A stretch of DNA of 61,096 bases from an uncultured Candidatus Saccharibacteria bacterium (GTDB lineage: Bacteria > Patescibacteriota > Minisyncoccia > Phycocordibacterales > UBA9973), in NCBI GenBank assembly GCA_964482735.1, contig CAYZYV010000003.1, positions 1-61,096 on the forward strand, read 5' to 3'. Each line of letters opens with the position of its first letter. Position 1 is the first letter of the stretch. Made by a program: the position numbers and the translations under genes. This document shows, in pieces, positions 34,357 to 35,964 of the stretch. Under the pieces are notes generated by a model. It saw only the letters and a list, made by a program, of their open reading frames with translations, did not search any database and was not told the DNA's origin.

Positions 34357-35073
34357 GTACCTTGTCGGGTAAGTTCCGACGCGCACGAATGGCATAATGA
34401 CTGGAGAGCTGTCTCGAAGACCTGCTCGGTGAAAATACAATACCGGTGAAGATGCCGGTTACCTGCAGATAGACGAAAAGACCCTAGAAGCTTTACTGCA
34501 GCTTGGTATTGAGTATATGGGTATTATGCGTAGCATAGATGGGAGAGGTTTGATGGTTACGATCTCGGTTGTGATCTACTCGTCAGTGAAATACCATTCT
34601 TAATGTTTATATACTCTAATCTCTACGGCAAAAACGCAGAGAGACAGTATCTGGTAGGTAGTTTTACTGGGGCTGTATCCTCCTAAAGAGTAACGGAGGA
34701 GTTTATTAAGGTTAGCTAGGCGCGAATGGAAACCGTGCCGATAGTGTAATGGCACAAGCTAGCTTAACTGCGAGACGTCCATGTCAAGCAGATGGGAAAC
34801 CAGAACATAGTGAACCGACACCACGCGTTAGATGCGGGTGAAGATTAACGGATAAAAGCTACTCTAGGGATAACAGGCTAGTTCCGCCTAAGAGTTCATA
34901 TCGACGGCGGAGTTCGGCACCTCGATGTCGGCTCACCTTATCCTGGTGGTGGAGAAGCTGCCAAGGGTTTAGCTGTTCGCTAATTAAAAAGGTACGCGAG
35001 CTGGGTTCAAACCGTTAAGGTCATAAGAGGTGTTTGTAAGTTTTGTGAAGGGCAAAATAGTTCATTTTAAACA

Positions 35074-35148
35074 GGGGTGTAGCTCAGTTTTTGGTTAGAG
35101 CGCTTCACTTGCAATGAAGAGGTCGTGGGTTCGATCCCCACCATTCCA
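35074..35148 (+). tRNA. tRNA-Ala(UGC)-like gene inside the intron (atypical acceptor stem)
   Basis: D-stem GCTC/GAGC, anticodon arm CTTCA-CTTGCAA-TGAAG, T-arm GTGGG-TTCGATC-CCCAC; acceptor GGGGTG/CATTCC is only 6 bp; no CCA. Confidence 0.75.
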
Positions 35149-35159
35149 ACGTATCATAA

Positions 35160-35233
35160 GGTGATATAGTTCAGCAGATAGAACGTCTCCCTTTTCAAGG
35201 AGAAGGTCGCGAGTTTGAATCTCGTTATCACCA
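35160..35233 (+). tRNA. tRNA-like gene inside the intron with an 8-nt anticodon loop (Glu/Lys-like)
   Basis: Acceptor GGTGATA/TATCACC, D-stem GTTC/GAAC, TCTCC-CTTTTCAA-GGAGA, T-loop TTTGAAT (non-canonical); no CCA. Confidence 0.65.
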
Positions 35234-35964
35234 CGAAAAAGAGCGAATTTTTATTCGCTCCCTTCACAAAACTTATAAACATCAAATTTGTGGTTTTAAC
35301 AGTTTGAACCGTTGAGGTTAAATAATTTAATTATTTACTGTTTTTAAAAAAAAGAGACAAGACCATGATACACAGTATGTGTATTCACGGCGGCCCGTCA
35401 TAAAAATATGACGAGGAGAAGTTGGGGTTATCGGTGAAGGCCTGAAAAGGTTAATACCGAGAGGACATTTGTCCTTGTAGAGACTAAAAACCAACCTTCT
35501 GAAAAGAAGAATATATAGTCCGATCCCTCTAGTAATAGAGGTTCACTAAAACTTTTAACGCTAAGTTTTAGTGAAATAAAACATAGATGCGTGAGACAGG
35601 TTGGTCTCCTATCTACTGCAGGCGTTGATTCTTGAGAAGATCTGCTCTTAGTACGAGAGGACCGGAGTGGACTGACCTCTGGTGTACGGGCTCTATTGCC
35701 AAATGGACCGCCCGGTAGCTATGTCGGGAACGGATAAGTTCTGAAAGCATCTAAGAACGAAGCCGCCTTCAAGATGAGGAATCGTTTGAGAAACCTAAGA
35801 GATGATTAGGTTGATAGGCACTAGGTGTAAGTAGAGTAATCTATTCAGCCGAGGTGTACTAATCGTTCGATTCCTATTAGGAAATTTGGAAATCATGTTA
35901 CTATAAAAAAGACATTCGACAGTATTCAGTTTTCAGGTATCATCAATTGATAGTTGAATATTTT

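Follow-up and report, generated by a model that had tools for sequence, protein, structure and literature searches.

The stretch analysed here, called the window, covers 61,096 nucleotides of contig CAYZYV010000003.1 (assembly GCA_964482735.1) from an uncultured Candidatus Saccharibacteria bacterium, and its central feature is a 23S rRNA gene interrupted by a group I intron that itself encloses two tRNA-type units. An Rfam scan of the window identifies a complete bacterial large-subunit rRNA gene at 32321-35881, intron included, with a 5S rRNA gene downstream, and finds no 16S rRNA within the 61 kb, in agreement with a first-pass annotation that had described the 23S gene as unlinked from 16S. 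The same annotation had located the break at AAACCGT^CGTGAG, and both the sequence and the family alignment support this: the junctions read ...GGGTTCAAACCGT(35015)|TAAGG...ATAGATG(35589)|CGTGAGACAG, with boundaries that cannot be shifted. The two tRNA-type units share the orientation of the 23S gene and lie between the 5' splice site and the internal guide sequence of the intron, within a stem-closed cassette (Table 1). Comparable cassettes recur in 23S rRNA genes across the Candidate Phyla Radiation (CPR), and this tRNA-bearing cassette family nested in 23S appears to be undescribed.

Table 1. Features of the intron-bearing 23S rRNA locus, followed by tRNA-type units nested in 23S rRNA genes at other loci (ORF, open reading frame; MFE, minimum free energy; R1, covariance model built in this analysis)
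Feature	Position	Strand	Remarks and basis
23S rRNA exon 1	32321..35015	+	ends at the E. coli U2593 equivalent; Rfam RF02541, 2300 bits, full model
Long helix, 5' strand (exon -12..-1 and intron nt 1-12)	35004..35027	+	pairs with 35287-35310; inverted-repeat search, MFE fold, RNAalifold
Group I intron, site L2593, 574 nt, no ORF	35016..35589	+	terminal G at 35589; sequence, Rfam, family alignment
Inserted cassette, 259 nt	35028..35286	+	at 5' hairpin apex; family alignment; fold z = -6.4 versus shuffled sequences
Cassette 5' arm GGTGTTTGTAAGTTTTGTGAAGGG	35029..35052	+	resembles arms of helix-45 and P6 cassettes at other CPR loci
Leader motif AGTTCATTTT	35060..35069	+	one mismatch from the GTTCTTT motif
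tRNA-type gene, anticodon UGC (Ala-type)	35073..35149	+	Rfam 58.8 bits; R1 66.5 bits
tRNA-type gene, anticodon UUC (Glu-type)	35160..35233	+	Rfam 62.6 bits; R1 63.7 bits; ARAGORN tRNA-Glu
Small hairpin GAGCGAAU-UUUU-AUUCGCUC, 8 bp	35241..35260	+	abuts the 3' arm; fold z = -5.1
Cassette 3' arm	35260..35283	+	forms 24 bp with the 5' arm, two of them G.U; each pair verified in the sequence
Long helix, 3' strand	35287..35310	+	inverted-repeat search, MFE fold, RNAalifold
Internal guide sequence UCACG|GCGG	35385..35393	+	invariant in the 14-sequence alignment; complementary to both exon ends, classical order
P2-type hairpin CGUCAU/AUGACG	35396..35413	+	directly 3' of the guide; RNAalifold, columns 173-190, 2-7 double changes per pair
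Catalytic core	35421..35541	+	Rfam alignment, RNAalifold, 14-sequence alignment
P3	35421-25/35491-95	+	core helix
P4	35431-36/35455-60	+	core helix
P5	35440-43/35448-51	+	core helix
P6	35462-66/35471-75	+	core helix
P7	35482-86/35516-20	+	core helix
P8	35496-99/35506-09	+	core helix
P9	35526-31/35536-41	+	core helix
P9.1 hairpin, 13 bp, perfect	35542..35575	+	inverted-repeat search
23S rRNA exon 2	35590..35881	+	begins CGTGAGACAG; Rfam and sequence
5S rRNA	36136..36243	+	downstream of 23S; Rfam 70.3 bits
L034			two nested units, one a canonical Ala-UGC with G3.U70 and ACCA; Rfam
L101			nested Gly-GCC and Val-GAC; Rfam
L109			nested Glu-CUC with CCA; Rfam
L077			contig JACKGF010000001 (997 kb); nested 'Tyr' unit, 75.8 bits (self-match); R1; first found by default ARAGORN
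L054			nested units, 46.7 and 26.9 bits; R1
L033			nested unit, 26.8 bits; R1
L049			nested unit, 24.3 bits; R1
L132			nested unit, 39.9 bits, 40-nt D-loop insertion; R1
L022 (CAYZIR010000001)			nested unit, 65.4 bits, in a 1034-nt L2593 intron; R1

The intron follows the equivalent of U2593, the site already proposed in the first-pass annotation. This placement comes from comparison with E. coli rrl, in which landmarks G1051 and G2447 fall at the expected indices, and from the standard E. coli numbering of positions 2580-2605. The preceding exon base is a U, and the last intron base, directly before CGTGAGACAG, is G35589 (omega G), a terminal base shared by the related introns. The RF00028 match (35322-35542, 38.3 bits, E 3.6e-8 in a 701-nt search) falls short of the gathering score of 50, and same-family relatives reach 50-68 bits. 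Membership in the group I family is secure despite this sub-threshold score, because an alignment of 14 sequences, comprising the window intron with its cargo removed and 13 close relatives (L095, L141, L134, L136, L138-L140, L143, L145, L146, L023, L070 and L037), contains the invariant blocks UCACGGCGG, UAUCGG, ACCGAG, GUAGAGACU and AGUCC, together with compensatory changes in P2, P3, P6, P8 and P9 (RNAalifold). P3 and P6 of the window intron themselves differ from those of the relatives through compensated changes, and the downstream P2 region of the closest relative, L141, is nearly identical base for base. Scanning species-representative genomes for 23S genes broken after U2593 yields at least 120 loci (given L numbers here), mostly from Patescibacteria, and a metagenome scan with the window exon/intron junction adds 9 further close relatives, all lacking the cargo, and 5 chance matches in coding DNA. 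Judged from these sequences, the insert is a true group I intron at L2593, from a family that is common in CPR/Patescibacteria, and its splicing is predicted. It carries no LAGLIDADG or GIY-YIG ORF; none on either strand exceeds 55 aa, the longest (55 aa) lying on the minus strand, as expected from the earlier remark that no endonuclease gene is present.

Two side observations concern this site and this family. The annotated rrl of E. coli ST2747 (NZ_CP007394.1, L147; 3512756-3515810) measures 3055 nt, ∼151 nt above the usual 2904, and the surplus sequence lies between G2447 and the 2593 site. Among the close relatives, L141 (P5 extension) and L134 (P9 extension) have in common a small module, GAAGAGRCTAAA-hairpin-CGYCCGAACTTTTGT..ACAAAAGTTTTAGG, in different peripheral loops, which may be another sign of hairpin modules moving between loops of these introns.

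The cassette is arranged as a 24-bp stem, a 20-nt unstructured leader, the UGC unit, a 10-nt spacer, the UUC unit, a 7-nt linker and an 8-bp hairpin; the stem with its two G.U pairs and the small hairpin had both been recognized in the first-pass annotation and hold up on closer analysis. The segment 35028-35286 is absent from 13 of 13 close relatives, in which the corresponding loops measure 4-8 nt (20 nt in L145). Because these relatives lack it, the cassette is, on the alignment, a recent insertion. In the window intron the guide sequence lies 370 nt 3' of the 5' splice site, whereas the distance in the close relatives is 106-120 nt. The insert does not belong to YrlA, whose match (Rfam, 18.8 bits; gathering score 69) covers no more than portions of the two tRNAs; the weak intron matches to STnc and other Rfam families amount to noise.

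The guide pairs with both exon ends. In P1, GCGG (35390-93) pairs with exon CCGU (35012-15), forming the wobble U35015.G35390, and in P10, UCACG (35385-89) pairs with CGUGA (35590-94) of exon 2 (RNAalifold). Among the loci listed, exon ACCGU goes with CACGGCGG in 73 of 81 and exon AACGU with CAC(AC)UGCGU in 13 of 21, so the exon -4 base and the guide covary across the intron families. L100 has an intron of the second (AACGU) type, yet combines exon ACCGU with CACUGCGG. The first-pass annotation had described a U.G pair in P1 and a 24-bp stem extending P1. The pair exists, its partner being G35390 in the guide, but the stem does not extend the catalytic P1. It instead caps a 5' hairpin formed by intron nt 1-12 with 35287-35298, coaxial with the exon-pairing helix. 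An alternative P1 register, AAACCGU with GUGGUUU and G35290 as the U.G partner, was rejected: that position covaries with intron nt 6 (U-A in 10 sequences, U.G in 3, G-C in 1) and is an A in most relatives.

The exon-pairing helix continues this 5' hairpin into exon 1. Within the resulting long helix, U35015 (-1) stands opposite A35299, an A in 14 of 14 sequences, C35013.A35301 (exon -3) is a conserved mismatch, and three pairs (alignment columns 9-61, 16-54 and 20-50) undergo compensatory changes. This long helix represents an alternative or accessory exon-binding structure, whose overlap with P1 is limited to exon -4..-1. The direct repeat formed by 35005-35021 and 35302-35318 was also considered as a target-site duplication or as the remnant of a second 5' splice site; both readings were dropped because the downstream copy (GTTTGAACC..GAGG) is kept in all cargo-less relatives and is the exon complement. 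A further observation concerns AACAG (35298-35302), which faces the last exon bases in the long helix and is also complementary to the family-conserved CUGUU at 35338-35342; this second pairing could act as a switch, releasing the exon for P1.

Both tRNA-type folds score well above the Rfam tRNA gathering score of 29, which upholds the earlier recognition of two cloverleafs. Default ARAGORN calls the Glu-type unit only, and the Ala-type unit is called only at a relaxed threshold (-ps80). Since this relaxed setting floods introns with false calls, the covariance model R1 was built instead, seeded with 14 ARAGORN tRNAs outside the nested-tRNA loci then known (L034, L101, L109 and the window). 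One of these seeds, the L077 'Tyr' at 6988-7060, sits in the helix-45 cassette of L077, so that its score there is a match to itself. The usual conserved tRNA bases are present in the window units. However, the Ala-type acceptor stem has an A1.A72 mismatch (non-canonical in the Rfam alignment), G3-C70 and G4.U69, without G3.U70. The G3.U70 pair defines alanine identity. The anticodon loop of the Glu-type unit, CUUUUCAA, has 8 nt on a 5-bp stem (35186-90/35199-203), as seen from an inserted base in the Rfam alignment and from the centroid fold, and its tertiary pair 19-56 is A-U instead of G-C, a double change that keeps the elbow. No CCA is encoded 3' of either unit. Decoding by the two window tRNAs is possible on these sequences.

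The arrangement is not a one-off. Scanning CPR 23S introns and genes for embedded tRNAs, as the first-pass annotation had proposed, reveals further nested units, always on the 23S strand (Rfam, R1; BLAST mapping). In BLAST comparison with the window exons, the insertion replaces helix 45 (E. coli 1164-1184) in L034, L101, L109, L077, L054, L033 and L049, and lies in a P6 extension of L2593 introns in L022 and L132. Helix-45 stem-loop cassettes also occur in L086, L112 and L092, and P6 cassettes in L043, L053 and L072. Because the L022 unit sits in an L2593 intron, the window is not the sole intron of this type with a tRNA-type gene. Among the loci listed, 15 of the 40 covering helix 45 have an insertion of at least 125 nt there; some of these expansions (L022, L090) are plain long hairpins of the classical intervening-sequence (IVS) kind. 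The helix 45 of the window itself is short, its cassette being in the intron.

The family as defined in this analysis comprises ∼16 cassettes recognized by short AT-rich motifs. Its layout is a long closing stem with a TTYGTRAAYTTYR-type arm, a GTTCTTT leader, one or more tRNAs or an acceptor/T-arm minihelix ending in ACCA, and a small hairpin at the 3' arm. The window cassette conforms to this layout with its arm, its one-mismatch leader, two tRNA units and an abutting hairpin. The closing stems are akin in sequence (window GTTTGTAAGTTTTGTGAAGG, L043 TTTGTAAGTTTTGTAGAG, L034 GTTTGTAAACTTCATCAAGG, L132 GTTTGTAAACTTTATTGAAG, L109 CTTGTGAGCTTCATTGAGG), the window arm matching L034 at 14 of 19 positions and the 5' end of L043 at 14 of 14, and the stems are similar at their base to the short helix 45 native to other CPR (GTTTGCAATTTC-TTCG-...). 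In 11 of 16 cassettes the 5' arm is followed by GTTCTTT, whose density in cassettes, 2.1 per kb, is ∼17-fold the background value of 0.12 per kb. As GTTCTTT(A/G) it is found in L034, L101, L109, L086, L077, L054, L033, L049, L132, L104 and L072, the window having a variant; it could be cut, be bound by a protein or pair with another sequence. A small hairpin stands against the 3' arm in nearly all cassettes. Separately, L088 (Kaiserbacteria, JACRFJ010000014) has stems with a cassette-type arm, GTTTGTGAACTTCAG..., at 1297-1491, 2121-2224 and ∼3485, each in a separate intron of a single 23S gene; what the first surrounds looks like a short ORF-like segment, not a tRNA.

The cargo of the family runs from canonical-looking tRNAs down to bare minihelices. 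In L043, L053, L072, L112 and the second unit of L022 it is just a stem or an acceptor/T-arm minihelix, followed by ACCA, and none of these gives an Rfam tRNA score at E <= 0.05. Several of the longer units deviate from ordinary tRNAs: the loop of L034 unit 1 is odd, L101 Val shows G3.G70, and the D-loops of L054 and L132 contain large insertions. Whereas Tyr and Leu tRNAs of bacteria belong to class II, the L077 'Tyr' unit, which also has a 1-72 mismatch, and the L022 'Leu' unit are both class I. A common origin of the cargo tRNAs is not supported, pairwise identity among cassette tRNAs being no higher than between unrelated tRNAs. What the family has in common, as far as these comparisons go, is the part recognized by RNase P (acceptor stem, T-arm/elbow, often ACCA), not the anticodon arm. 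The L022 P6 cassette holds a further peculiarity on the minus strand at about locus position 1805-1835, where the cargo contains CCACGTCGTGAGACAGTG; within it, CGTCGTGAGACAG is a 13-nt exact copy of the uninterrupted 23S target, equivalent to the ligated-exon junction, and could be a mimic of the guide-sequence product, a homing-endonuclease decoy or a captured rRNA fragment.

These observations favor a reading in which the element is a co-transcribed cassette built for cutting by RNase III and RNase P, with processing as the selected function. Processing is taken as that function because the RNase P-type top half, not the anticodon, is conserved across the family; we regard this interpretation as about evenly poised between right and wrong. 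It takes up a suggestion of the first-pass annotation, in which RNase P/Z recognizes the tRNA folds as signals for processing; this suggestion fits the family-wide pattern better than tRNA supply does.

The anatomy, the guide sequence, the missing cargo in relatives and the recurring cassette are observed; from them we infer a series of enzymatic steps, their order and the fate of the tRNAs. The cassette would be transcribed within the pre-23S RNA. No promoter-like site is predicted within the intron; one is predicted upstream of the 23S gene at 31957-31985. In the precursor, the long alternative helix (35004-35027 with 35287-35310) would hold the 5' exon and the first 12 intron bases, and the guide (35385-35393) would align both exons via P1 and P10. 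The 24-bp duplex, ∼47 bp if stacked on the hairpin and the exon helix, would be an RNase III-type substrate, and the tRNA elbows and acceptor ends would be substrates for RNase P and 3' trimming enzymes. The rnc gene for RNase III is kept in at least 90% of CPR genomes (PMC12641178). Excision of the cassette could take place either before splicing or from the released intron. If the cut came first, ∼35 bp would keep the two intron halves annealed, and they would splice in the manner of a split intron; if it came after splicing, the excised ribozyme would be opened to exonucleases and decay. tRNA-sized RNAs would be released whichever the order, and such cuts made in helix 45 would leave the 23S rRNA in fragments, as classical IVSs do. 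A more ambitious formulation, which we advance tentatively and consider more doubtful than the core idea, covers the whole family: a portable CPR cassette (helix-45-type arms, GTTCTTT leader, tRNA or top half with ACCA, hairpin) would be a built-in RNase P/RNase III break point that in helix 45 fragments the 23S rRNA and frees tRNA-sized RNAs, makes group I introns split, self-destructing ribozymes, and in some lineages is the sole home of a working tRNA gene, coupling tRNA supply to rRNA transcription and locking the intron in place.

Several results weigh against processing as the selected function. The window units score as high under R1 as ordinary tRNAs in the same loci, and the double change at 19-56 of the Glu-type unit suggests selection on the tRNA fold that would be expected of a working tRNA too. 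Some cassette tRNAs look canonical (L034 Ala with G3.U70 and ACCA, L101 Gly). Aberrant anticodon loops are not confined to nested cassettes: just after the 23S gene of L069, at 5335-5407 on the minus strand, a tRNA of 77.7 bits has a 6-nt anticodon loop, UUUUAA. Because this tRNA outside 23S also has an odd loop, such anomalies are not specific to cassettes and are suggestive rather than decisive. The homology of the arms, for its part, depends on short AT-rich matches (the window against L034, for example), and no second contig with the exact window cargo was found among neighbor-protein contigs or in metagenome scans, a pattern specific to the Glu-type unit giving 0 matches in the latter.

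The strongest competitor is the idea of the first-pass annotation that the intron delivers tRNAs needed by the cell: working tRNA-Ala(UGC) and tRNA-Glu(UUC) would be carried at rRNA expression levels, replacing a lost 16S-23S spacer home and making the intron hard to lose. The tRNA scores well over threshold, the co-orientation of the units with a 23S gene that has no 16S or spacer in the window, and the compensated 19-56 change all speak for it, as do the canonical-looking sister units (L034 Ala, L101 Gly, and L109 Glu-CUC with its CCA), the occurrence of an Ala(UGC) and UUC-type pair twice, in the window and in L034, and the presence of a single other tRNA, Ser-GGA, in the 61-kb window (ARAGORN, R1). 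Essential tRNA supply is nevertheless weakened by the Ala-type acceptor stem, with A1.A72, G3-C70 and G4.U69 and without the identity pair, and by the 8-nt anticodon loop of the Glu-type unit. Other nested units deviate too (L077, L022, L101 Val, L054, L132), many homologous cassettes retain just the acceptor/T-arm minihelix, and the lack of cargo in all 13 close relatives means that the intron lineage does not depend on it. Supply of working tRNAs is therefore possible, though on the improbable side.

A selfish or neutral mobile hairpin is less probable again. Such an element, resembling a 23S IVS, would move from one exposed loop to another (helix 45, P6, the intron 5' hairpin), dragging along functionless tRNA-derived sequence. 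The same arm motif and architecture do occur at three kinds of site in several CPR classes, the distribution is patchy both among the close intron relatives and among helix 45s, and the cargo tRNAs of different cassettes are no more alike than unrelated tRNAs. Classical IVSs are likewise sporadic and horizontally spread, according to PMC11270868 and PMC4990558. Yet no mobility gene or target-site duplication is seen, the direct repeat being a family-conserved part of the intron, and neutral decay fails to explain the persistence of the acceptor/T-arm, ACCA, GTTCTTT and the abutting hairpin across distant lineages. Mobility also addresses origin rather than function, and is compatible with a cassette built for processing.

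A role in recruiting a tRNA-binding protein (an aminoacyl-tRNA synthetase, the CCA-adding enzyme, or the RNase P holoenzyme as a chaperone) to aid folding of the intron or the 23S rRNA has very little probability. Synthetases assist the splicing of group I introns in mitochondria, CYT-18 and LeuRS being established cofactors; the cassettes occupy peripheral helices (5' hairpin, P6), the places at which cofactors of folding act, and the Glu-type elbow is preserved; none of the results supports recruitment directly, however, helix-45 cassettes have no intron to fold, and the close intron relatives manage without a cassette. Least credible of all is a chimeric contig that put the tRNA pair inside the 23S gene, since, although metagenome rRNA regions are prone to mis-assembly and the same cargo was not recovered on any independent contig (same-strain contigs sought through neighboring proteins, 16 via L7/L12 and 3 via FtsW, all stop before the intron, and the MscS-like ORF retrieved no record), the insert lies exactly at a hairpin apex, is closed by its own 24-bp inverted repeat, and has an internal order matching cassettes in at least 10 independent metagenome-assembled genomes, which a random join would not produce.

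The intron and its cassette can be placed among known systems. Tsurumaki et al. 2024 (PMC11270868), the fullest survey of insertions in CPR rRNA genes, lists site 2593, to which its insertion sites 23IS12-14 belong, and leaves 'long sequences of unknown function' unexplained; tRNA is not mentioned in its main text or in the part of the supplement examined. More broadly, no description of tRNAs inside a bacterial rRNA gene, a group I intron or a CPR rRNA insertion was found in the searchable literature, the coverage of which is incomplete. L2593 group I introns (the I-CreI site) share with the window intron the insertion site, the terminal G, the guide forming P1 with its U.G pair and P10, and the P3-P9 core. 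They usually carry a LAGLIDADG ORF if they carry any cargo, whereas the window intron has a tRNA-bearing cassette between the 5' splice site and the guide.

The 23S IVSs are the nearest structural parallel. In helix 25 or 45 of Salmonella, Campylobacter and Coxiella, they too are near-perfect stem-loops on an exposed loop with a sporadic distribution, and RNase III excises them without religation (PMC2801512, PMC4990558). The sister cassettes replace exactly helix 45, one of the IVS sites. Classical IVSs are empty or hold a small ORF, in contrast to the tRNAs or tRNA-like minihelices of the cassettes; and unlike an IVS, the window cassette lies inside an intron rather than in the mature rRNA, and could thus be removed without necessarily breaking up the 23S rRNA. 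The tRNAs of rRNA-operon spacers (tRNA-Ile/Ala or tRNA-Glu) are likewise co-transcribed and flanked by long processing stems, and UGC and UUC are classical spacer types; a 16S-23S spacer tRNA-Glu is seen in the E. coli genome examined. Spacer tRNAs are released by RNase III, RNase P and 3' trimming. They lie between genes, whereas those of the cassettes are embedded in the 23S gene itself, within an intron or helix 45, and several are aberrant.

Host genes inside a group I intron have a precedent in the hexacoral mitochondrial ND5-717 intron, whose P8 holds host genes, in corallimorpharians including rRNA genes and one tRNA gene, and which is termed 'obligatory' (PMC6545197). That intron is mitochondrial, with an insert of up to 19 kb in P8, clade-wide vertical fixation and removal by back-splicing (PMC6545197), whereas the window intron is bacterial, with a 259-nt insert near its 5' end that is absent from close relatives. 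Splicing after a break in a peripheral loop also has counterparts: split group I introns that trans-splice naturally are reported for Isoetes mitochondria (PMC2731911) and Prasinoderma rnl (PMC3873408). In such introns the halves can splice if they stay base-paired, as would those of the window intron if the cassette were cut before splicing. The known split introns are broken at the DNA level, whereas a split of the window intron would be post-transcriptional and hypothetical.

The role proposed for the minihelix cassettes resembles tRNA punctuation, in which a tRNA fold, or an acceptor/T-arm half with CCA, serves as the RNase P/Z mark (mitochondrial polycistrons; MALAT1 mascRNA). These precedents come from organelles and eukaryotic nuclei. 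YrlA, a bacterial Y RNA, is superficially alike in combining a long stem with a tRNA-like module, although its score places the window cassette outside that family.

Two observations lie beyond the intron. A ribosomal protein L10 leader, at 29236-29374 and just at threshold with 44.3 bits, precedes rplJ and rplL (29382-30361); this group stands ∼2 kb upstream of the unlinked 23S-5S pair, with a helix-turn-helix protein and an MscS-like protein between them. In the tRNA cluster downstream of the 23S gene of L060 (3062-3190, minus strand), the full-length tRNA model matches over 129 nt with 57.1 bits, probably a tRNA gene with an intron; intron-bearing tRNA genes have reportedly been found in Patescibacteria.

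If the arrangement is real, tRNA-type units would join endonuclease genes and empty loops as a third kind of cargo in group I introns of bacteria, and CPR 23S genes would routinely nest tRNA or tRNA-like units within the rRNA gene. Counts of CPR tRNA genes may then be wrong, with genes hidden in rRNA annotations; tRNA finders may also reject aberrant units, since default ARAGORN missed the Ala-type unit of the window. Fragmented 23S rRNA would be predicted in lineages with helix-45 cassettes, and the window would offer a natural case of RNase P, RNase III and a ribozyme acting on one transcript. The cassette also makes testable the notion that a selfish intron can become indispensable via a captured host gene, so far documented only for a coral mitochondrial intron.

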